DNA of 64,000 nucleotides from a virus (taxonomy: Duplodnaviria > Heunggongvirae > Uroviricota > Caudoviricetes): positions 1-64,000 of the IMG/VR virus record IMGVR_UViG_2609459856_000007; one strand, written 5' to 3'. The notes below the pieces were generated by a model. The model saw nothing but the letters and a program-made list of their open reading frames with translations, was not told the origin of the DNA and searched no databases. Each line of letters opens with the position of its first letter. Positions within the stretch are counted from its first letter, which is position 1. Position numbers and translations under genes: made by a program. This document shows positions 15,534 to 46,836 of the stretch, one piece after another.

Positions 15534-19252
<3,719 letters not shown>

Positions 19253-19432
19253 CCACTTCATCTACACTCGCGGCATTGGAAGCAAAGATATGGTCGTCTG
19301 GCACCTGATGCACATTGATAAGGCTATCAACCACACGCTGGAGAAGTTCTTTCCACCAGCCTGAACACAATGATTGTGCGCCTTATAGCGCCCATTAAGA
19401 TAGATAAGTACTTACCAACAAGGAGAAAACAC

Positions 19433-20056
19433 ATGAAGACTTTGGTTCGCATTTCATCTAGTACCGACTATGACGTTTACCCGTTGTTCATGATCAAGTG
19501 CGACGGGCTGAACGATGAAGAAATTCAAGCGGCAATTGAACGCAATCTAGTTGAATACACAGGAATGGATGCGGATTCTATTTATATCGATGATGACGGT
19601 GTTTGTTGGCACAACGGTAGCTGCTGGTACGTATACGACACAATGCTGGTACCCAAAATCCTGCGCACCAGAATCCATCTCCCTGCGACCAAAACGTCAA
19701 AAACGACTCGTGATATCACTCAAAAACAGAAGCGCTCAGAAGCGCTCCCGTTGCGTTATATTTGGCATCTAAACAAATTGTTTTCAGGTATAAGAAAACA
19801 AGTTAACAACCCCCACAGGAAACCCAGAGACGCCATTACCCACAATCCCGGAAACATCCACCTCTTCCTGTCAGGCTACCGAAAAGACCCACCTCATTGC
19901 CCCAGGCTACAGACCACCCACCTAATATTCCCAGGCAACCGAGAACGCGGTTCGCACGCGCAAACCCCGATACGTCATTACCCAATACACGGAGAAGAAC
20001 AGCCAGAACGAAACCCCGGACAAACCCAGACAAGAACAGGAGCCGTCACAATCTAG
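19433..20056 (+). CDS. hypothetical protein; 3' part runs into repeat DNA and may be over-extended
   Basis: ATG at 19433 with AAGGAG 8 nt upstream; C-terminal third is low-complexity translation of the 19970-20235 repeats. Confidence 0.35.
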   Translation: MKTLVRISSSTDYDVYPLFMIKCDGLNDEEIQAAIERNLVEYTGMDADSIYIDDDGVCWHNGSCWYVYDTMLVPKILRTRIHLPATKTSKTTRDITQKQKRSEALPLRYIWHLNKLFSGIRKQVNNPHRKPRDAITHNPGNIHLFLSGYRKDPPHCPRLQTTHLIFPGNRERGSHAQTPIRHYPIHGEEQPERNPGQTQTRTGAVTI

Positions 20057-20235
20057 TTTACCCACCATTACCCCGAAAGAGAGCGCAAATTCCTGAATAG
20101 CAGGGAACGCCATTACTTCATATGCGGAGAACAACTAAAGCGCCCTACTGCCATTACCCACACTTTCATCATTTCACGTAAACGAAGAGAAAAGCGCACC
20201 TGCCATTACTCCATACACGGAGAAGAACAATCACC
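19970..20235. repeat. direct repeats GCCATTAC(C/T)...ACGGAGAAGAAC (about 4 copies)
   Basis: Copies near 19975, 20111, 20150 and 20201. Confidence 0.55.
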
Positions 20236-20514
20236 AAAACGACGAGAACAACCCAGACGAAAACACAGAGAAGAACCACCTCAAGAAGAACGAAACCACA
20301 TACGCCGGTAGAGAGTACAAACCACCCATTTCACCCACAGGAATAGTCGCCGTATTGAGCGTTATCAGAGAGAAGGTTTATGCCCACATAAGAGAGAAAA
20401 TTCGTGGGAGGTATAAGTGGGAAGGGGAAGAGGGGTATCGCTACTTTTTCCGTATAAATTCAAGCCATAGTTTTCATCCCCCGTAACGTCCCTTTCCACC
20501 CCTTCGGTCAGCCT

Positions 20515-20700
20515 TCGGGCCATCCAGGGAAAAGGCCATGTCCCTTTTCAGAAACGGGAGCGTCGCCGCAGGGAAAAGGCTGGAGGTTTTCAGGGAAACG
20601 GTGGGAATCCCGCTATACGAACCGGGAAAAGGCTGGCTGCCGGTCGGGAAACGGGTACATCCCGGTACAGAGTGAGGGACGACTGCGAGAGCGGTGCGGG
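20515..20700. repeat. cluster of GGGAAA(A/C)GG direct repeats (6 or more copies)
   Basis: GGGAAAAGGC at about 20528, 20570, 20623; GGGAAACGG at about 20593, 20647. Confidence 0.6.
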
Positions 20701-21039
20701 AAATCTTCGGGAGTGCGCCTTGCTCTTCGCTCGCCTGAAAATCGCGAGGGAGTGTCGTTCCCTCTCGTGCAGCTGCTGAACTCCATTCTGCCAGACCATC
20801 CTCGGGTCTCAAGCGATTTCAGTAGGTTTTCGGGGAGAAGAAAATTCTGCCCACCAGCCCTGCGGCGCGCGTAGAGCAGAATATCGTAAATACTGGTTCC
20901 CGTGTCGTTCCCGGATATTCACTGCCCAGCCTGGCTTTCACGACATAAAATCCTTTTTCGCCTTTGTCTTATTGCGACAATAACACCAACAAGTAAACAA
21001 CATGTTTAGACGTTATATAAACGAAGTGAGGATGAAGGG

Positions 21040-21258
21040 ATGATTAAGATGCCTGTGACGGTTGAGGTGTGGGGCGTGGATTCCCTGGCTGAGTGTCTGG
21101 ATGCAGTGGGGCCGGAGTTGTACCGCAAGTTGTGGTCGTTCGTCCCGGCAGAAGGGGAATCGCCCAAAGGGAAGGATATCTGGCACCTGCTTAGTGAAGA
21201 TGAAAAGCGGGAGCTGGTGGACGCGGTACACAGCGAGTTCCCGGACGACGAAGATTAA
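21040..21258 (+). CDS. small acidic hypothetical protein (72 aa)
   Basis: ORF preceded by operator motif at 20994-21008 and a GAGGA ribosome-binding site. Confidence 0.5.
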   Translation: MIKMPVTVEVWGVDSLAECLDAVGPELYRKLWSFVPAEGESPKGKDIWHLLSEDEKRELVDAVHSEFPDDED

Positions 21259-21397
21259 GAGTGAGACCACCAGCACGGTGGCTTTTGTCGCTATTAACCT
21301 CCGGGGCAGCGCAGCACCGTAACGATATACTTTGTGGCCGTTTTCTTACTGGTATTGTTTACGCAATTCAGAAAACAACATGTTTAAGGATTGCTTT

Positions 21398-21727
21398 ATG
21401 TTTGCAAATATCGACATCAACCAAATCAAGAAAATGACTCAAAAAGAGTTTGACCAGTTTTATGAGTTAGAAGGTTGGTCTTCCACGCTGATCAATTCGC
21501 GCTGGGTGCTTGAGCTGATGACTCGTGATGATGCTCCTGCTTTGATTATTTGCGACATGGGTGAAGATGCTGACTTTATGGATATGAGCGAATTTTGTGT
21601 GGACACATACAACCGCAGCCAGAAGTACTACTTCACATGCGATAGCGAGAATGACGTGATTTCTAAGCTCTATCTTCACCTTGTCCAGCATTGGGACGTG
21701 CAGGAATTCCTTGAGTTATTCGCGTAA
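21398..21727 (+). CDS. small hypothetical protein (109 aa)
   Basis: ATG at 21398 downstream of operator motif 21372-21386; track ORF 21332-21727. Confidence 0.5.
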   Translation: MFANIDINQIKKMTQKEFDQFYELEGWSSTLINSRWVLELMTRDDAPALIICDMGEDADFMDMSEFCVDTYNRSQKYYFTCDSENDVISKLYLHLVQHWDVQEFLELFA

Positions 21728-21887
21728 GCCCAACCAAAGCCAGCACCGCCTGCTGGCTTAACTTCTCTGTAGCCGCAGGGCAGAACCACCTTTAGATAAT
21801 TCATGTGCCTGAGCAATATGCTTTGTAGCCGTTTTTACACTGGTATTATTTACGCCATTGAGAAAACAATTTGTTTACGGAGTGGTG

Positions 21888-22199
21888 ATGAATACTTCAT
21901 TGGTGCTGGGTCTTGCTGAAGGCCAGGAGAGAAAAGAAAAACCAACCTTAATGGGGCATCTCACATTGCTGGATATCGTAGCGAATGGGACTTCTATCCG
22001 TCTGTTTCGTGAAAAAGCCATTACCTTCGACGCGGGCAATTTTACGCGCTATGTGATGGTAGTTCGTCGCCAGCGTGGAAGAGGGTGGATGTCGGTCCAG
22101 AAAATGTGGCCAGAGGACCAGCTTGAACTGGCGCTGATGGAAGCCAACCGTGTCGCCCAACAAGAGATCCAACGAGCGTCTGTTCAGGCGGTAGCTTAA
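21888..22199 (+). CDS. small hypothetical protein (103 aa)
   Basis: ATG at 21888 downstream of operator motif 21863-21877. Confidence 0.5.
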   Translation: MNTSLVLGLAEGQERKEKPTLMGHLTLLDIVANGTSIRLFREKAITFDAGNFTRYVMVVRRQRGRGWMSVQKMWPEDQLELALMEANRVAQQEIQRASVQAVA

Positions 22200-22320
22200 A
22201 CATGTGCAAGCAGTAGTTAGTCGACCCTACGACAGCCCCGTCCATCCTTCGGGGCTTTTTTGTATTGTAAGTACTTACTTATGATAATAAAATTAAAAAT
22301 TAAACACTAAGGAGAGTGAA

Positions 22321-22716
22321 ATGACCGTTAAACGCGAAAATCTGACCCTGGATATGTATTATGCATCAGAGACGGAAAATGGAGACAAAGTTGCAAAAAT
22401 TACAATTGTGCTACGCGATAATGCCTCCGGCGAAGAAGTTCACACCAGTACCTTAACTCGCACCGGCGAGGCGACAAAGGGGAAATATTCGGTGCGTTAC
22501 CAAAGCATCAGTAATGCTTCTGACCCTTTACTGATAAAACTGGAAACTCATTTCCGTGGCGCGGATCAGACGTTGTTTGAAAATTTGATGAAAAAGGTCG
22601 ATACGGTTTATACATCGAGTTTAAATACCAATAGTACCTGGATGGGACAACACGGTCTGCGAATAATCTCCGGCGAAAAGATCGACACCATTGTCCCTGA
22701 AAGCGTATTCGCTTAA
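22321..22716 (+). CDS. small hypothetical protein (131 aa)
   Basis: Strong ribosome-binding site AAGGAGAG; followed by a terminator. Confidence 0.55.
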   Translation: MTVKRENLTLDMYYASETENGDKVAKITIVLRDNASGEEVHTSTLTRTGEATKGKYSVRYQSISNASDPLLIKLETHFRGADQTLFENLMKKVDTVYTSSLNTNSTWMGQHGLRIISGEKIDTIVPESVFA

Positions 22717-22726
22717 TCCTCTTTGA

Positions 22727-22754
22727 ATGGCGCGTATCCCGCGCCATTTTCTTA
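22727..22754 (+). terminator. rho-independent terminator
   Basis: GGCGCG-TATCCC-GCGCC hairpin followed by ATTTTCTT. Confidence 0.6.
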
Positions 22755-22833
22755 TCCCCGATAACAAAATGTTTTCTGCCTTATCTGATTTGTGAAAATG
22801 ATTTCACTGAAGCAACTTAATAAGGAAACCATC

Positions 22834-23208
22834 ATGGGACTTGATATCTATATCGAGACGCAGCCTAAAAACGATCTGAATAACGAGGCATCCAGAAAGC
22901 AGGTTGCTTACTTCCGTAAGTTCAATGCGCTCGTTGGGTGGATGGAGCGCAACGTAGGTGAAGTCGAAAATTGTGAGCTTTTAGAATTAACGATGAATGA
23001 CATTTGTTTTCTGAAGGCTCATTTGATGCACATAAACGAAAGTAATTGCGAAGAGTACTTGCCTACCCAGGAAGGTTTTTTCTTCGGCAGTCAGGAGTAC
23101 GATGAAGGTTACTGGCATGACGTGGGGGAGTTGAAAGAGATTGTGGAAGATCTGATTAAGAACCACGACTTTCACAATAATAGACTGACCTTCTGCGCCT
23201 GGTGGTAA
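22834..23208 (+). CDS. small hypothetical protein (124 aa)
   Basis: ATG at 22834 with AAGGAAAC ribosome-binding site; operator-like AACA-N3-TGTT at 22762-22776. Confidence 0.5.
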   Translation: MGLDIYIETQPKNDLNNEASRKQVAYFRKFNALVGWMERNVGEVENCELLELTMNDICFLKAHLMHINESNCEEYLPTQEGFFFGSQEYDEGYWHDVGELKEIVEDLIKNHDFHNNRLTFCAWW

Positions 23209-23537
23209 ATATGGGCGATTTCAAGAAACGCCTGAAGGAGAGAGCCGAGATGGTCAGAAAGCGAAACGCCTCTTCTGTCATAAGATACGCAAGGCAGTTT
23301 AGTCGCAACAACAAATCAGTTGAGGAAAAGATCCTTAGCGTAATCGGGCGATAATTATTAAGGCCAGCAGCATTGGTGGTCTTAAATGACTTTTAATAAC
23401 CGAAGGTTAGTTTGAAACCTGGCTATCAACTTCCAGAACCTTTCTTGTGTATTCAGCCTGTATTAACTTCTTTTATGCCTTATCTACACTGCGATAATTA
23501 CACCAACAAGAAAACAATATGTTTACGCAGTGAGGAT

Positions 23538-23825
23538 ATGCTCATGACTGATTTCACCATTACCCCTAAAGCACAAAATGTATTCCTTGAATCATGGCTG
23601 GACTTGCCGGAAACAGAACAGCAAGAAATGGATCATGTGGAATATGACGAGCAGGTAAGCACGCGATTCTTCCACTTTGAGGGCTGCGTTTACGACATTG
23701 CCGACTTCATGCGAGATGACCGCTTCCCTGAATGGCACGCAAGCTATCCACTAAACGCCTTCGCCATGCTGATGATCCGTGTGGATGATTCAGGGGATAC
23801 CATCGACATCGGTCTGCTCCACTAA
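23538..23825 (+). CDS. small acidic hypothetical protein (95 aa)
   Basis: ATG at 23538 downstream of operator motif 23511-23525; followed by GGCCACCA...TGGTGGCC hairpin (23828-23852). Confidence 0.5.
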   Translation: MLMTDFTITPKAQNVFLESWLDLPETEQQEMDHVEYDEQVSTRFFHFEGCVYDIADFMRDDRFPEWHASYPLNAFAMLMIRVDDSGDTIDIGLLH

Positions 23826-24029
23826 AGAGTAAGGCCACCAATGCTGGTGGCCTTAAATGACCATCCTGTTTCCCGCAGGCTAAAAACACCAACCTCTTAC
23901 CTCCAGGCAACCGACAAACCCACCTGTTCCCGTCCGGCTACCGCAACTTTCCACTTTGACGCCTTATTCGTACAACGATAATTAAAACCAACAAGAAAAC
24001 AATTTGTTATTTACGATAAGGAATTAATC

Positions 24030-24512
24030 ATGAATTTTATCGCTATTGTAAACGCACCCGCACATGGCAATATCGCTGTAACGTTCTCTGACATTGAAAA
24101 ACGAGTACTTGGTGCATGGCGCGACAATGAGACGGTAGAACTGTCAGCACAAGAAAAATGCATTATTGCACGCGACATCATTTGCAATCGTCGTTACTCA
24201 CGGGTAATTGAGAAAGCGTATGTCGCAAATTCTGGCTTCGGAACATTTGTCTTCCCGGTGCGCTCCGGGCGATTCTGCCAGTCCAAGCTGATTGAGTTCG
24301 CTACGCAGATTTCTGTCTGGATTAAAACTCAATCGTCGTTCAAATTTTCCGACGATGAAGCAGTATCGCAGGGGATGCGGATCGCCAACAATGCAATAAA
24401 ATACAAAAACATTACGTATGCCGCTGGCGTTGACACATGGAAACTGTTTTGCGCTAACTTTATGCTGAATGTATACGCAAGCAACCGCATCCACATCCTT
24501 GATGGCGTGTAA
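24030..24512 (+). CDS. hypothetical protein (160 aa)
   Basis: ORF downstream of operator motif 23997-24011. Confidence 0.5.
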   Translation: MNFIAIVNAPAHGNIAVTFSDIEKRVLGAWRDNETVELSAQEKCIIARDIICNRRYSRVIEKAYVANSGFGTFVFPVRSGRFCQSKLIEFATQISVWIKTQSSFKFSDDEAVSQGMRIANNAIKYKNITYAAGVDTWKLFCANFMLNVYASNRIHILDGV

Positions 24513-24544
24513 CTGAGAAGAGGGCCAGAAACGGCCCTTTCTCT

Positions 24545-24660
24545 ATAGCCACCAGCTGCCGCAGGGAAATTTTCAGAAACGGCGAGGAACGCATTCATGA
24601 GCCGAAGGGAAACGACCATGAAATTTTCTGGAAACGGCGGGGGGCGCCTTTATGTAGAAA
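24545..24660. repeat. second cluster of GGGAAA/GAAACGG repeats, homologous to 20515-20700
   Basis: CCGCAGGGAAA...TTTTCAGAAACGG shared with the first cluster; GGGCCATCCAG also present in both. Confidence 0.55.
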
Positions 24661-25284
24661 ACTGAGCGGGAGAAACCCGGAATCGCGCCAGAAATTGCGT
24701 AGCGGCGCTGGGGTAGCGCTGGTGGGGTTTCAGCCCCTGGGCCATCCAGATAGCTTTCGCTATGTGATTATGTGAATCCGTGGGTAAATCACTGTAAGCG
24801 CGTACACGTTGCCCAACGTGGCAATCATATGCGAGCGGATACAAAACAACACAAAGAGCCGATCCGCGCCGACAAATAAACGCGGATCACATAGCAAGAC
24901 TAAAAGCCAATGATTAACTATACTCTATAGCGCAATATAACGCGTTTTAAGCGCGTTAATGTGTTAAGTAATGGGTATATACTGACAAGGATATAAAAGC
25001 GCGTCTATGGCGTTATTTTGGTGCTTATTTTTATGTTGTTGGAGTGAGTTAAAGACAATAAAAAACGCGCCAATGATGGTGCGTTATGGTGGGAGTATTG
25101 GAAACGAAAAAAGCGCCCATGGGGGGCGCTCGATTTTATTTGTGTAAACTAATTTTGAATCCCATTTCTACAAACGCTTTTAACATTAAAAATATATCAG
25201 CGTCGTTCACGTCTGCTTTTTTTCGCTCCTGGTCGTTCAATAAGTCAATTTTGCGCGTTGTTTCATTTATAAACTCGACTGCGC

Positions 25285-26381: not shown

Positions 26382-26906
26382 TTAAAACGGTAAAATCCGT
26401 TCGACCCAATCGAAGAGAACTATCGTTCGTCCGCGCTCGCCAACTCTCATTGCGACCTGACAGGCATCAACGCCTAACGAACACCCCTCAATTTCACGGC
26501 CATCCGCCATGTAGACCCTTATAGACTTTTGCGCCTCATGAGCTTGACGACAAATTTTGAAGAAATCGCGGCGTGATGGCCGATTGTCCACATAGTCAGG
26601 GTGTACAGTGAGCCTACCTGTAAACATCTTGTCCACTTCGACAGGTGTAATTGTTTCTATGGTGCTAACTCGCTCCAATGGAAGACGAACACGATGTTCT
26701 TTACTTCCTATAACGGGAGAAAGATCTAGCTTATTGCGTGCGGTAAGCAGACCAATAACGTAAAGACAAAACGTCTGACCATCATCGATCGTGACCCTTA
26801 CAGGTATATTCCTTGCCCGTAGGAACTGCAAACTAAACTCCACGTTAGAGTAGTCGCGGGGCCAGACCTCTGCTGGGATGCCGTATGTAATGTCTGTGAT
26901 CGTCAT
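26382..26906 (-). CDS. hypothetical protein (174 aa)
   Basis: ORF; start overlaps the upstream gene's stop (ATGA at 26906). Confidence 0.5.
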   Translation of the reverse strand: MTITDITYGIPAEVWPRDYSNVEFSLQFLRARNIPVRVTIDDGQTFCLYVIGLLTARNKLDLSPVIGSKEHRVRLPLERVSTIETITPVEVDKMFTGRLTVHPDYVDNRPSRRDFFKICRQAHEAQKSIRVYMADGREIEGCSLGVDACQVAMRVGERGRTIVLFDWVERILPF

Positions 26907-30236: not shown

Positions 30237-30300
30237 AAACCTCTTTCCTTCGTGCCTTTTGTATGGTAATTGGCTATTATGTTAAGTAAGTGCTTACACA

Positions 30301-33695: not shown

Positions 33696-33728
33696 GTAAG
33701 TACTTACCTAATAGGAAAAGAAAATCAA

Positions 33729-43753: not shown

Positions 43754-44072
43754 GTGTACCCCCTGATGGCCGGTGATGTAGGAAGGCCATCATTGCTCTC
43801 TATTTAAACTGAGTTTTCGACTCAAAGGTTATTTAACTGGGCTATAGCCCATTGCGTATGTGTCATCAAATTGTGTACGGCAATTTACCGTACACGTAAT
43901 ATAGAGATGATTGTCACTTTTTTCAACAGACAAATGAAAACAGTTACTAGCAATAGGCAATAACAACCTACTAAATAACCTTTACACCGCAGCCGTAGGC
44001 ATTTAGGCTATATCACATATAAGAAAACAAGTTGTTTCAGACGATAATTATATACGCAAAGGGAACTCTCCA

Positions 44073-44741
44073 ATGACCAAGATCTTTGTGGTTGGCGGCA
44101 CAAAGGGCGGGCCTGGCAAATCCACTGTTGCCCAGCAAATTGCCGTTTGCCTGAAAGTCAAAAAGAAGAAGAAGGTTTATATCACTGATATAGATATTCA
44201 GCGCACGACAACAAGCTGGTGTGAAGACCGTCGACAGAACGAAGACCTTGAGCTGATTCCTTTTGCATACGTTCAGGATGACATCATTAAGCACCTAAAA
44301 TCGCTTCAGGGTAGAGCTGAGTTTGTAGTGGTAGATGCTGGTGGCTTTGACTCCGAAATTCAGCGACAAGCGATGCTGATGGCCGACGTTATCATTATCC
44401 CGCTTCGTCCTAAGCGTCGTGATTTGAAATCTCTGCGTGACATCGATCCTATTATCGACAATGTTCGTAATGTAAACGATAAAGTGAAGGTCCGCGCGGT
44501 CATGAACCAGTGCCCGGCTTTGCCATCACAAGTGTCTCGCATTTTGGCGGCTAAAGAGATTGTCGAGACGGTTGGCATCGAGTCTGCGCCAGTCAATTTA
44601 TATAACCGCAACGTCTATGATGATGCGGAAGAGTCTGGTCGTTCTATCTTTGAAATGACCGGTAGCGAGCGCGACAAAAAGGCGGAAGCCGAGTTTGAAG
44701 AATTTGTAGATTATCTGTTGAGTCTGGAGGAAGAAGAATAA
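44073..44741 (+). CDS. ParA/ParF-like small partition ATPase (type Ib)
   Basis: Deviant Walker A GGTKGGPGKST; 222 aa; operator motif at 44024-44038. Confidence 0.75.
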   Translation: MTKIFVVGGTKGGPGKSTVAQQIAVCLKVKKKKKVYITDIDIQRTTTSWCEDRRQNEDLELIPFAYVQDDIIKHLKSLQGRAEFVVVDAGGFDSEIQRQAMLMADVIIIPLRPKRRDLKSLRDIDPIIDNVRNVNDKVKVRAVMNQCPALPSQVSRILAAKEIVETVGIESAPVNLYNRNVYDDAEESGRSIFEMTGSERDKKAEAEFEEFVDYLLSLEEEE

Positions 44742-45100
44742 TGTCCATGAAAATGGGTGACCTAGCAAAGCGCAAAGAGCCTGATGCACCGGCCAAGAAC
44801 ACAACTCCTTTGCGCCAACCAGTCAGACCACAGGGACGCCCGACTCGTGGCAAAGAGAAAATTAAAAGCCGCACAATGTCACTGGAGGACGAATACTTCG
44901 AACTGCTGGAAATGATGAAGTTCATCCCTCGTTTCGAGAAGTTCACCCGTTCTGACGTGATTCGCGCAGCCATTTTCCATCTGGCAGAGAAGTCACCGCA
45001 GGAAATCGAGGACATCGTGAAACTTAACGAGGCGATCACAGCTGCCGATGTCACGATGCGTACCGATGAAATCAAACGAGAGTTGATGAAGAAAGGTTAA
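44741..45100 (+). CDS. ParG-like centromere-binding protein (putative)
   Basis: 119-aa ORF translationally coupled to the ParA-like gene; basic N-terminus. Confidence 0.5.
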   Translation: MSMKMGDLAKRKEPDAPAKNTTPLRQPVRPQGRPTRGKEKIKSRTMSLEDEYFELLEMMKFIPRFEKFTRSDVIRAAIFHLAEKSPQEIEDIVKLNEAITAADVTMRTDEIKRELMKKG

Positions 45101-45152: not shown

Positions 45153-45920
45153 TTATGCCGCGCTAACACTATGTTCATTCCTAACCACCCCAACCTTCAC
45201 AAAAGGGCTGCCGTAGCTTGGTGGCTTCTTGATTAATTTGCCTACATACAGTTTTCTAATATGCTCATCGGCTATTCTGCCAACAAATTCATAACGTTTT
45301 GTGTCGGGGCCAAGAGCTATATCCCTTGTAAAGTACTGCTGAGAACCGGCTTTGACCCAGCATTCAATCTGATAAACTTCCATTATCAGGCCCCCATATG
45401 TAGCGTAGGCATATTTGAGATTCTCGTCTCTTGGAACCTTTGCCCATACGCCACGCGTAGCTTCATATAATGCCAGAGCGGACATTCCTGACTTGTAGGT
45501 GCTGTTTAGCAGGAAGGCAAGACCGGCGTGCTCAGGAGCAATTTCAGTTTCCTCTTGCAGCACTAAGTGATGGTAGGCGTCCAGTGATATTCTGCCCATC
45601 ATGGAACCACTTCCTCGTACCTTATTCGTAAGCTCTCCGACCCCCATAAGGTCGATGCATGTCGCCTCAACAAGTTTGGCTGTGGTTTCATCCATACCAT
45701 GACGAAGAATATCTATGCCTAATTTTTTATTAGCCAAAAGTTCTTTGATCCGCATGGATTTGGGAGAGTCATCGGGATACTTGATGTGATCGAGACAACG
45801 AGTCGATTTGCCTTTTCCTATGTAAAACGGTCTTTTCATCTTGTCTTCTGTATCATAGAGACAGTAAACATAGTATTTAGCCTTATCCAATGATTTCGCG
45901 TATACCGATAAATCGTCCAT
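45153..45920 (-). CDS. GIY-YIG nuclease domain protein
   Basis: N-terminal YYVYCLYD...FYIGKGK GIY-YIG motif; 255 aa. Confidence 0.65.
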   Translation of the reverse strand: MDDLSVYAKSLDKAKYYVYCLYDTEDKMKRPFYIGKGKSTRCLDHIKYPDDSPKSMRIKELLANKKLGIDILRHGMDETTAKLVEATCIDLMGVGELTNKVRGSGSMMGRISLDAYHHLVLQEETEIAPEHAGLAFLLNSTYKSGMSALALYEATRGVWAKVPRDENLKYAYATYGGLIMEVYQIECWVKAGSQQYFTRDIALGPDTKRYEFVGRIADEHIRKLYVGKLIKKPPSYGSPFVKVGVVRNEHSVSAA

Positions 45921-46293: not shown

Positions 46294-46836
46294 GTGATGA
46301 AGACCTTCCAGGGTCGTGACATTACCGGTGCAGCAGAACGCCGGTATCTGTTCCCCATGCAGCTGCCAGCATCGGGTAAATTTCTCTACAACGGCCACAA
46401 TGCAGTCGGCAAACAGACTGTAGTTGTCTGTGAGGGGGCGTTCGATGTTATGGGGGTTAAACGAGCTATTTTTGATGAAGAAACATTACGCGATTACGTG
46501 GAACCGATAGGAACGTTCGGGATGCATCTATCTGGTAACACCACTCAGGATGCAGAAGATCAGTTGGGCGCGTTCCTGACGCTCAAGGCGCGTGGATTAC
46601 GTAATGTGATTATGATGTGGGATAGTGAAAAGCAAGCTATACGCAACACGATGGCCGCAGCCAGGCGACTGACCAGTATCGGTCTTAATGTCAAAGTAGC
46701 GTGTTTGGGCGAGGAAGGACTCGACCCCGGCGATGCGACACCGGGGCAGATTATCAAAGCCTACTATTGCGCAAAACCTTATTCACGACAGCTTGAACTT
46801 TTAAGCAAGGTAAAAGGCATAGCTGCATTAGTTTGA
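46294..46836 (+). CDS. Toprim-domain protein (primase-like), possibly 5'-frameshifted
   Basis: VVVCEGAFDVMG Toprim-like motif; an upstream 39-codon ORF (46203-46319) in another frame overlaps the start. Confidence 0.45.
   Translation: MMKTFQGRDITGAAERRYLFPMQLPASGKFLYNGHNAVGKQTVVVCEGAFDVMGVKRAIFDEETLRDYVEPIGTFGMHLSGNTTQDAEDQLGAFLTLKARGLRNVIMMWDSEKQAIRNTMAAARRLTSIGLNVKVACLGEEGLDPGDATPGQIIKAYYCAKPYSRQLELLSKVKGIAALV

Follow-up and report, generated by a model that had tools for sequence, protein, structure and literature searches.

The DNA analysed here (the window: 64,000 nucleotides (nt), positions 1 to 64,000 of IMG/VR record IMGVR_UViG_2609459856_000007) is an Escherichia coli phage-plasmid of the SSU5/pHCM2 type, and also a defective phage. 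Between 21040 and 24512 it carries seven small plus strand genes (g1 to g7), annotated in RefSeq relatives, and a 47-codon open reading frame (ORF), g5b. An earlier note on this DNA had described the region as seven small ORFs of about 70-160 amino acids (aa), several of them acidic, each with its own ribosome-binding site and most with a shared operator, lying between two homologous repeat clusters, and had likened the layout to early or leading-region arrays that often hold anti-defence genes. The sizes were confirmed (72-160 aa), and the genes are arranged as the following cassettes, in which O1 denotes a palindrome of 13-15 bp (AAACAA-N-TTGTTT) and O2 a different palindrome of 12 bp (GTAAGTACTTAC).

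20953-21281, plus strand: cassette g1; -10 TGCGACAAT at 20973-20981, O1 at 20995-21007, coding sequence 21040-21258 (72 aa, charge -11; phrog_6757, unknown function), hairpin 21267-21281.
21325-21757, plus strand: cassette g2; -10 TGGTATTGT at 21350-21358, O1 at 21373-21385, coding sequence 21398-21727 (109 aa, charge -13), hairpin 21739-21757.
21816-22261, plus strand: cassette g3, a core gene; -10 TGGTATTAT at 21841-21849, O1 at 21864-21876, coding sequence 21888-22199 (103 aa, basic), terminator 22236-22261.
22262-22751, plus strand: cassette g4, a core gene; AT-rich promoter TTGTAA-17-TAAAAT with O2 at 22267-22278 in its spacer, coding sequence 22321-22716 (131 aa), terminator 22729-22751.
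22762-23383, plus strand: cassette g5 with g5b; O1-like TAACAAAATGTTT at 22762-22774 over the -35, -10 TGTGAAAAT at 22791-22799, coding sequences 22834-23208 (g5, 124 aa, charge -13) and 23211-23354 (g5b, 47 aa, basic), hairpin 23360-23383.
23462-23854, plus strand: cassette g6; -10 TGCGATAAT at 23490-23498, O1 at 23512-23524, coding sequence 23544-23825 (93 aa, charge -15), hairpin 23831-23854 containing a plus strand Chi.
23954-24544, plus strand: cassette g7, a core gene; -10 AACGATAAT at 23974-23982, O1 at 23997-24009, coding sequence 24030-24512 (160 aa, basic), terminator 24522-24544.

Four of the products (g1, g2, g5 and g6) are acidic, with net charges of -11 to -15. A ribosome-binding site of the GGAG/AAGGA type lies at most 20 nt from the start in seven of the eight ORFs, that is, in all seven genes, g5b being the one without; g5b is basic, overlaps the stop of g5 and is annotated only in the phage Cyrano, not in RefSeq relatives. 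Every cassette ends with a GC-rich hairpin. Upstream of g1, g2, g3, g6 and g7 lies a conserved 65-bp module in which an extended -10 (TGnGATAAT-like) is followed, 13-14 nt further on, by O1, spanning roughly +6 to +19; counted over these five cassettes O1 begins 9-14 nt past the -10 and covers the early transcribed stretch. The shared operator claimed for most genes was found in six of the seven (g1, g2, g3, g5, g6 and g7), and g4 carries O2 instead.

A search with AAACAANNTGTTT, allowing at most one mismatch, gave 17 strand-hits in the window against 2.45 expected. Seven of the nine O1 sites are located within 19771-24009, and the other two stand at promoters elsewhere.

O1 sites: 19771, 20995 (g1), 21373 (g2), 21864 (g3), 22762 (g5, over the -35), 23512 (g6), 23997 (g7), 44025 and 57408.
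44006-45100, plus strand: O1 (44025-44037) at the promoter of a small ParA ATPase gene (44073-44741), followed by the gene of a ribbon-helix-helix-like partner (44741-45100).
57387-57420, plus strand: promoter/O1 module (O1 57408-57420) before a 32-codon ORF, a CobT-like VWA gene and an AAA_5 gene; a replication operon in relatives.

Among relatives (70 IMG/VR loci plus fetched plasmids, from which the upstream counts for both palindromes are drawn), O1 was present upstream of g2 in 37/37, g3 in 74/75, g5 in 39/39, g7 in 77/77 and g6 in 46/57. The arms of O1 are conserved and its central bases vary freely, the signature of a dimeric DNA-binding protein. Furthermore, O1 lies over the -35 in g5 and in three promoters of the distant Klebsiella relative KpPF25 p2, where it lies outside the transcript, so that recognition there must be at the DNA level. 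The CobT-like/AAA_5 operon of relatives extends into DNA polymerase III alpha, and in Cyrano O1 also stands before the DnaB helicase gene. KpPF25 p2 has 22 O1-pattern sites (at most one mismatch), most of them before annotated genes (parA, dnaB, TerS, cargo genes and the array). The recurrence of O1 at many promoters in the window, Cyrano and KpPF25 p2 points to a global operator of the family. Moreover, KpPF25 p2 retains the whole architecture (O1 promoter, A/C-rich and G-rich segments, iterons, Chi and cassettes) despite protein identities to the window of only 32-52% (g7 32%, FljA-like protein 37%, ParG-like partner of ParA 52%). Directly upstream of the replication-operon O1 promoter we also observed a perfect 12-bp inverted repeat, CTGTACGAACAG-N9-CTGTTCGTACAG (57345-57377), which may be a terminator or a further operator.

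In the published RNA sequencing of a Cyrano lysogen of E. coli LF82 (PMC9928086, table S1), homologues of the array genes gave 6-25 normalised counts, with a prophage background of about 10; the parA operon gave 50-89, the CI-like repressor 96, and the g5b homologue (CYRAN_109) 58, about six times background and above its neighbours. On these data the array is essentially off in the lysogen. The likeness to early arrays drawn in the earlier note therefore holds in part: the units are independent, operator-bearing and near-silent in the lysogen, but the likeness to conjugative leading regions does not hold, as most relatives are typed non-mobilizable.

The array is also mosaic, with 15 presence/absence patterns across 77 loci; g3, g4 and g7 are almost always present, and g1, g2, g5/g5b and g6 are variable. 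Adjacent genes differ in their level of identity among relatives (g4 is 38-100% identical), and homologues of g6 are confined to SSU5/pMT1-like elements. An integron gene-cassette array was considered and rejected: promoter and terminator come with every cassette, the repeats between cassettes correspond to promoter modules and not to attC-like imperfect inverted repeats, and the sole integrase in the window (55371-56474) lies 30 kb from the array.

The products of g1-g7 gave no match in Pfam-A or NCBIfam at an expectation value (E) of up to 0.1, and by sequence none of them belongs to the ArdA or Ocr families. Searches of all eight products against Pfam, NCBIfam, PADLOC and PHROGs returned only PHROGs of unknown function, apart from a sub-threshold PADLOC match of g6 to Dsr1 (E 0.021), and sequence searches of the PDB for g2, g5, g6 and g7, together with a profile search for the g5 family, returned nothing meaningful. 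The earlier note had named confident homology to housekeeping or structural phage proteins as evidence against its anti-defence suggestion; none was found for the cassette products, and on this point the suggestion stood. The g5 family itself is very large and unnamed, with 2539 clusters at E up to 0.001 in a library of 1.84 billion proteins, all of them phrog_7971 (unknown function). It is marked by the motifs M-G-L-D, Y-x-R-K-x-N and P-x3-G-F-F-F-G and a C-terminal W, and has no Pfam model and no solved relative.

The array is bracketed by two clusters of direct repeats.

20508-20660, plus strand: repeat cluster 1; six direct repeats, consensus C(A/G)GG(G/A)AAA(A/C)GGCTGG, starting at 20525, 20547/9, 20569, 20591, 20622 and 20644.
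24545-24750, plus strand: repeat cluster 2; minus strand Chi 24549-24556, units CAGGGAAAT (24562), CAGAAACGGCG (24574), AAGGGAAACGAC (24605) and CTGGAAACGGCG (24628), degenerate to about 24700, plus strand Chi 24718-24725, and TCAGCCCCTGGGCCATCCAG at 24730-24749.

The two homologous clusters described in the earlier note are both real. They consist of direct repeats of approximately CRGGRAAAMGGCTGG in a 22-bp phase (two helical turns), in the same orientation and about 4 kb apart, and are kept in all subfamilies; the 13-mer TTTTCAGAAACGG has exactly two copies in the window, one per cluster, against 0.01 expected. Cluster 1 is preceded by TCAGCCTTCGGGCCATCCAG, and this shared 20-mer at 20508 occurs again at 24730. 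The units of cluster 1 are spaced by 22, 22, 22, 31 and 22 bp, and GGGAAA[AC]GG has five plus strand copies within 120 bp (20527-20646) and one elsewhere in the window on either strand. Cluster 1 is conserved in three subfamilies; in the Klebsiella group a 9-nt deletion converts the 31-bp gap to 22 bp, and three units of a Klebsiella subgroup read exactly GGAAACGGCTGG-like. Cluster 2, with Chi on both sides, is enclosed by two convergent terminators, that of g7 and that of a minus strand operon. It is looser, being weaker than cluster 1 by the strict motif (24562-24700), and relatives carry canonical CGGGAAACGGCTGG and CGGGAAACGGCCAGG units there.

As the motif and the 22-bp phase are kept while the spacers drift, the clusters appear to be bound by protein as duplex DNA, and candidate sites for a sequence-specific protein are their best-supported description. 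The protein-binding sites proposed in the earlier note were borne out to this extent, and no conserved RNA or single-stranded DNA fold was found. With six units and one 31-bp gap, cluster 1 has the helix-phased direct repeats of 17-22 bp, at least three in number, that are looked for in iterons. The only AT-rich stretch near the clusters lies 250 bp beyond cluster 2. Two other sources of the repeats were tried and rejected. The iterons of RepA differ in sequence (CTCTCTATAGTGGATA), and RepA lies elsewhere in relatives. A reading as small-terminase (cos/pac) sites, after the lambda R sites, which share GGAAACGAC, was not supported, because some 7 kb and an operon on the opposite strand separate the clusters from the terminase genes.

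Upstream of the array lies a 1.3-kb non-coding region that can be aligned end to end with hundreds of relatives (66-70% identity) and is unannotated in nearly all of 838. A conservation profile of 23 non-redundant relatives resolves discrete blocks at 0.9 or above within it.

19752-19795, plus strand: promoter-like element TGCGTTATATT of the extended -10 type, then O1 (19771-19783); identified by sequence and O1 match, conserved in the alignment of relatives, pointing rightward.
19795-20345, plus strand: non-coding A/C-rich segment; A 37%, C 33%, G 17%, T 13%, C/G about 2-2.8, with two repeat families.
20400-20500, plus strand: conserved G-rich segment, GGTATAAGTGGGAAGGGGAAGAGGGG ... CCGTATAAATTCAAG ... 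CCCCCGTAAC, from the conservation profile; an equivalent G-rich stretch occurs in KpPF25 p2.
20780-20885, no strand assigned: highly conserved block (conservation 0.92-0.93) with a minus strand Chi (20851-20858) and a predicted minus strand sigma70-like promoter.
23887-23947, plus strand: 31-nt CACCT...CCAGGCWACCGA repeat, two further copies ahead of the g7 promoter, found by repeat search.

The same -10/O1 layout heads the equivalent region of KpPF25 p2 (45536-45572). Over its 550 nt the A/C-rich segment is 70% A+C on the plus strand, six standard deviations off the window mean. It contains the 31-nt repeats CACCT-N8-CCAGGCWACCGA at 19855-19945 and the further repeat set that the earlier note had placed at 19970-20235, which was confirmed as three 27-nt units of GCCATTAC-N7-ACGGAGAAGAAC at 19974, 20109 and 20202; GCCATTAC alone occurs at 19832 and 20150. 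The minus strand promoter predicted in the conserved block (20812 to 20785, TTGAGA-16-CAGAAT, with the TG of an extended -10) points leftward into cluster 1. It would be convergent with the O1 promoter at 19752, which suggests sense and antisense transcription over the non-coding unit. Multireplicon Klebsiella plasmids of 150-260 kb, e.g. K. pneumoniae NZ_CP055163.1, also contain 470 bp of the A/C-rich unit (window 19727-20194, 73% identity), which sit there among insertion sequence (IS) elements, off any SSU5 backbone, and are uninformative.

The non-coding regions contain no consistently open frame, and Rfam gave nothing relevant at the gathering score for the whole window or at E up to 5 for the region. 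Sliding-window RNAalifold on both strands (23 upstream and 22 downstream non-redundant relatives) found no conserved RNA fold in the upstream region, where the structure conservation index was at most 0.48. Downstream, the index reached 0.87 on both strands for 25054-25129, and terminator-like hairpins at 25054-25131 are the only structure. Three conserved hairpins in fact occupy 24994-25131, in an AT-rich stretch and each after an A-run (AAAAGCGCG..., AAAAAACGCGCC..., AAAAAAGCGCCC...); the last is a bidirectional terminator, and the set could be a small RNA gene or part of an origin.

The second palindrome, O2, was found upstream of g4 in 70 of 74 relatives, and GTAAGT(A/G)CTTAC has four exact copies in the window against 0.03 expected.

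O2, exact copies: 22267-22278, 30286-30297, 33696-33707 and 56891-56902.
O2, copies with one mismatch: 19404, 35210, 46174 and 59107.

Its settings are the g4 promoter, a position beside the CI-like repressor gene, one between helicase and ParB-like genes, and one before the portal gene. Sites for the E. coli nucleoid-occlusion factor SlmA have been described as 12-bp palindromes with G, T, A and G at positions 1, 2, 4 and 5, a purine at 3 and a pyrimidine at 6 (Tonthat et al., 2011, PMC3020112). O2 obeys these rules (GTRAGYRCTYAC, with the consensus given as GTGAGTACTCAC, matches four sites against 0.03 expected) and thus fits as a candidate SlmA site. However, all O2 copies of KpPF25 p2 read GTAAGTRTTTAC, which disrupts one SlmA half-site, and this concerted change suggests an element-encoded binder rather than SlmA.

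The placement of the element in the SSU5/pHCM2/pMT1 phage-plasmid family follows from annotated relatives. A 5.9-kb stretch around the array matches 786 plasmid records, mainly from Klebsiella, Escherichia, Enterobacter, Yersinia and Salmonella, of which 755 are typed non-mobilizable; the closest is E. coli pRHB17-C02_4 (99.2%). Among phages, CMS-2020a, PhiR41_1 and Cyrano match at about 91% and SSU5 at 82%. All annotated relatives share one gene order: a variable cargo region, then about 1.3-1.5 kb without an annotated gene, then the plus strand small-gene array, followed by about 0.6 kb of non-coding DNA and a minus strand operon whose genes include those of an FljA-like regulator and a UvsW-like helicase. 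The cargo of relatives consists of restriction-modification genes, DUF4942, HD-domain genes or metG, and that of the window of HsdR and an IS fragment; both lie directly upstream, at 15534-19650, HsdR being a 1005-aa subunit of Type I restriction and the IS fragment (18566-19252) a piece of an IS3-family transposase. Since similarity to most relatives begins only at 19650, the cargo region stops at the edge of the conserved non-coding unit. The plasmid replicon differs among relatives (IncFIB, rep_cluster_488, rep_cluster_2469), and the family carries T4-like replication and recombination genes.

Two deletions were identified. At about 33436, relative to pMT1, about 2.1 kb are gone, and with them the gene of the small terminase and the 5' part of that of the large terminase; at about 46262, relative to pRHB17-C02_4, about 2.8 kb are gone, comprising a hypothetical gene, the gene of a DnaB-like helicase and the 5' part of that of the primase, and ORF 46294-46836 retains only a Toprim domain. 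The element is a deletion derivative that is probably unable to form virions. Chi (GCTGGTGG) has 25 copies in the 64 kb, on both strands, against 1.45 expected; seven fall within 19353-24725, several of them in conserved non-coding blocks or terminator hairpins.

Chi sites in the array region: 20851 (minus), 21213 (plus), 21267 (minus), 23843 (plus), 24549 (minus) and 24718 (plus).

Three element-encoded proteins are candidates for the O1 binder. The ParA gene product matches the ParA, MipZ and CbiA models of Pfam, and its 119-aa partner has a basic N-terminal tail and a ribbon-helix-helix-like core (its NCBIfam ribbon-helix-helix match is below cutoff), giving the type Ib layout, in which a small ribbon-helix-helix protein comes after a small ParA of the Walker type. 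Apart from O1, the parA promoter has no repeated or palindromic element, whether in the window or in KpPF25 p2, there are no other repeats near the par operon, and the logic of autoregulation would favour this ParG-like protein. The logic of immunity would favour the CI-like helix-turn-helix protein (56469-56858), whose own upstream region has O2-like sites and not O1. The third candidate, the FljA-like protein (26382-26906, minus strand), is a full-length homologue of the flagellar phase-1 repressor FljA (PF03614, E 6e-69) and a neighbour of the array in all relatives examined. The Salmonella fliC leader, the target of canonical FljA, contains CAAGTTGT, the core of the commonest O1 variant (chance estimate about 0.04), which makes this protein a weak lead. 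Co-variation with KpPF25 p2 does not discriminate between the three, because O1 is unchanged there and all three are retained.

We interpret the region as an accessory early or establishment module of the SSU5/pHCM2-family phage-plasmid, in which a repressed regulon of orphan cassettes is bracketed by predicted protein-binding arrays, and put the probability of this reading at roughly 0.55. Repression by a palindromic operator over the start site is its well-supported component, as judged from sequence and comparative data. In the plasmid state a single element-encoded dimeric repressor would hold O1 and block RNA polymerase; upon entry of the DNA into a repressor-free cell, or upon induction, all O1 promoters would fire together, and the small, mostly acidic orphan proteins would then act on host targets, in takeover and possibly anti-defence. 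The 1.3-kb non-coding unit would be the first O1-controlled transcription unit, sending an untranslated A/C-rich RNA towards cluster 1. The clusters would bind a second element-encoded protein and mark or organise the module as a cis-acting site (a replication origin, enhancer or boundary), and the 65-bp promoter/operator modules would supply the homology for cassette swapping.

Several points weigh against this interpretation. The expression data are those of a 91%-identical relative, Cyrano, in the lysogen only, and it is from this state that we infer an 'early burst' on entry or induction. The parA operon bears O1 yet is expressed at 5-9 times background, so O1 does not mean full silence. 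Binding of protein to O1 and to the cluster repeats is predicted, and the three candidate O1 binders are not separable by sequence. No initiator (Rep) gene lies beside the clusters, their flanking genes being orphan cassettes, and neither non-coding region contains TTWTNCACA DnaA boxes, the IHF consensus or GATC clusters. As the element lacks TerS, DnaB and parts of TerL and of the primase gene, the module can act here only in the plasmid state. Finally, as to the mimicry folds of the Ocr/ArdA kind that the earlier note had proposed to look for, the predicted fold of g7 matches nothing, including anti-CRISPR or Ocr-like folds, and the AF2 model of g6, the only acidic protein modelled, has a pLDDT (predicted local distance difference test) of 63, too poor for a fold search.

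Other readings assign the operator or the cassettes a different role. O1 could be both the operator and the dispersed centromere of a type Ib partition system, whose ribbon-helix-helix partner autoregulates parA and represses some 10-20 other promoters, and the seven O1 sites in 4.3 kb would then make the array the main partition-complex site. We consider this possible, though on the unlikely side. It agrees with the position of O1 at the parA promoter, about 10 nt past the -10 both here and in KpPF25 p2, in a par operon devoid of other centromere-like repeats; with the basic tail and core of the partner, whose presumed DNA-contacting strand is identical in the 52%-identical homologue; with the species distribution of the partner, which parallels that of the upstream non-coding region (both are missing from Yersinia pMT1); with expression of the parA operon in the lysogen; and with the precedents of omega of pSM19035, KorB of RK2 and the SopB sites of N15. 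However, ribbon-helix-helix centromere proteins usually require arrays of short tandem subsites, and each promoter here has one 13-bp palindrome. O1 before TerS and dnaB in relatives suits a lysogeny repressor better, the lysogen-expressed CI-like protein is equally available, and pMT1, though a recent derivative, keeps O1 at g6, g7 and TerS without the partner protein. An anti-defence island, whose cassettes would encode proteins, such as acidic DNA mimics, that are made at once on entry and inhibit restriction-modification or another form of host immunity, is a more doubtful proposition. Four small, strongly acidic products, a mosaic and fast-evolving array repressed in lysogeny, and a variable cargo/defence region next to it (HsdR in the window; restriction endonuclease, DUF4942 and HD-domain genes in relatives) are what such an island would show, and SSU5-group elements are otherwise without recognised anti-defence genes, so that any that exist must be unrecognised. 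Yet the products have no Pfam, NCBIfam, PADLOC or PDB match, the fold of g7 resembles nothing, two of the three core genes, g3 and g7, have basic products, and charges of -11 to -15 are far from the charge density of Ocr.

The remaining alternatives concern the repeats. That the clusters form a lytic or secondary phage replication origin with a distant cis partner, like P4 ori/crr, activated by O1-controlled transcription from the upstream unit, strikes us as rather improbable. Six direct repeats in a 22-bp phase, with a second cluster of the same motif and orientation 4 kb away, would suit it, as would a motif that travels with the phage backbone and not with the variable plasmid replicon, an O1 promoter aimed into cluster 1, an AT-rich stretch with hairpins past cluster 2, and a family with T4-like replication and recombination genes that needs some origin. 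Set against these are the want of an adjoining initiator gene, DnaA boxes, IHF sites, GATC clusters and an AT-rich unwinding element next to cluster 1, and a GC skew that makes no switch there beyond the local A/C bias. A long non-coding RNA spanning the upstream region and clusters and titrating host CsrA, Hfq or Rho is quite improbable. An O1 promoter stands at its head, the 550 nt that follow are untranslated, C-rich and G-poor, and GGA motifs (AUACACGGAG, CAGGGAA) might engage CsrA, A-R-N runs Hfq, and the 550-nt C>G stretch Rho. The conserved ATACACGGAGAAGAAC units also resemble the CsrA consensus obtained by systematic evolution of ligands by exponential enrichment (SELEX), RUACARGGAUGU. 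However, there was no Rfam match, CsrB/RsmZ types included, and no conserved secondary structure on either strand. The most conserved repeat core, GAAAMGG, with strict 22-bp phasing and several units without GGA, points to DNA recognition, and Cyrano ORFs overlapping the upstream region are at background in the lysogen (PMC9928086). Single-strand initiation (ssi) sites, also suggested in the earlier note, or Frpo-type sites, as in conjugative leading regions, we hold to be hardly credible: only the general layout of small genes beside repeats speaks for them, whereas 755 of the 786 relatives are typed non-mobilizable, annotated relatives have no relaxase, oriT context or transfer genes, and no conserved hairpin of the ssi or Frpo kind was found on either strand. 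Tailed-phage genomes, moreover, enter cells as double-stranded DNA.

Set beside known systems, the module we favour, a repressed cassette regulon between predicted protein-binding arrays, combines features of several. Phage morons, as in lambdoid HK97 and HK022, are independent promoter-gene-terminator units that a repressed prophage typically keeps expressing, to the benefit of its host. The array genes are likewise self-contained with promoter and terminator, variably present, and placed between conserved backbone segments, but they share an operator, are near background in the Cyrano lysogen, and are clustered with near-identical promoter modules. The C1 operators of P1 are asymmetric 17-mers, bound by monomeric C1 and scattered over the phage-plasmid genome; the likeness lies in one operator over many phage-plasmid promoters, including those of replication genes, whereas O1 is a 13-15-bp palindrome and no C1 homology was seen. 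Omega of pSM19035, KorB of RK2 and the protein of the SopB sites of N15 are partition proteins that double as global regulators. In the same manner the par-promoter operator O1 recurs at many promoters, and the partner has a ribbon-helix-helix-like core and a basic tail; however, a single O1 palindrome per promoter differs from heptad arrays (omega) or the 13-bp OB site of a ParB-fold protein (KorB), and O1 binding is only predicted. With iteron origins and P4 ori/crr the region shares direct repeats at two helical turns and two same-orientation clusters about 4 kb apart, but its clusters have no adjoining Rep gene, DnaA or IHF sites, and RepA iterons differ and lie elsewhere. Anti-defence islands of plasmid leading regions and phage early regions (ardA/psiB/ssb, T7 0.3, T4 arn) also contain small, partly acidic, fast-evolving genes by a defence/cargo hotspot, for which expression immediately upon entry would be expected; the cassette products, in contrast, have no sequence or fold similarity to known members, there are no single-stranded DNA promoters, and the relatives are mostly typed non-mobilizable. 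The literature, as far as it was searchable, held nothing specific on an SSU5 operator or repressor, and no description of the array layout or of the regulatory circuitry of the family. We therefore treat the array as a new combination of known kinds, namely moron-like units, dispersed-operator regulons and iterons.

A more speculative and unlikely extension is that SSU5-type phage-plasmids possess a single cis-acting 'establishment domain', of an undescribed kind, made up of the non-coding unit, both clusters and the O1 cassettes. The ribbon-helix-helix protein would serve as global repressor and centromere binder on the seven O1 sites, and a second protein, bound to the bracketing repeats, would insulate the domain or draw it into a loop, or else trigger an origin activated by transcription. 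If this is true, a single stretch of DNA would couple plasmid segregation to lytic replication and to a burst of orphan proteins directed at the host.

Phage-plasmids of the SSU5/pHCM2/pMT1 type are common in E. coli, Klebsiella, Salmonella Typhi, Shigella and Yersinia pestis, and carry resistance genes. For this family the analysis maps one global operator (O1) and a further palindrome (O2), the co-regulated orphan genes that are expected to fire on entry, two conserved arrays of predicted protein-binding sites and a large conserved non-coding unit. If the cassettes encode host-takeover or anti-defence factors, they would represent new families, and g5 alone would contribute over 2500 sequence clusters. 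Should the repeats prove to be an origin or a centromere, they would explain the switch between plasmid and phage replication, and would offer handles for curing or tracking these elements.

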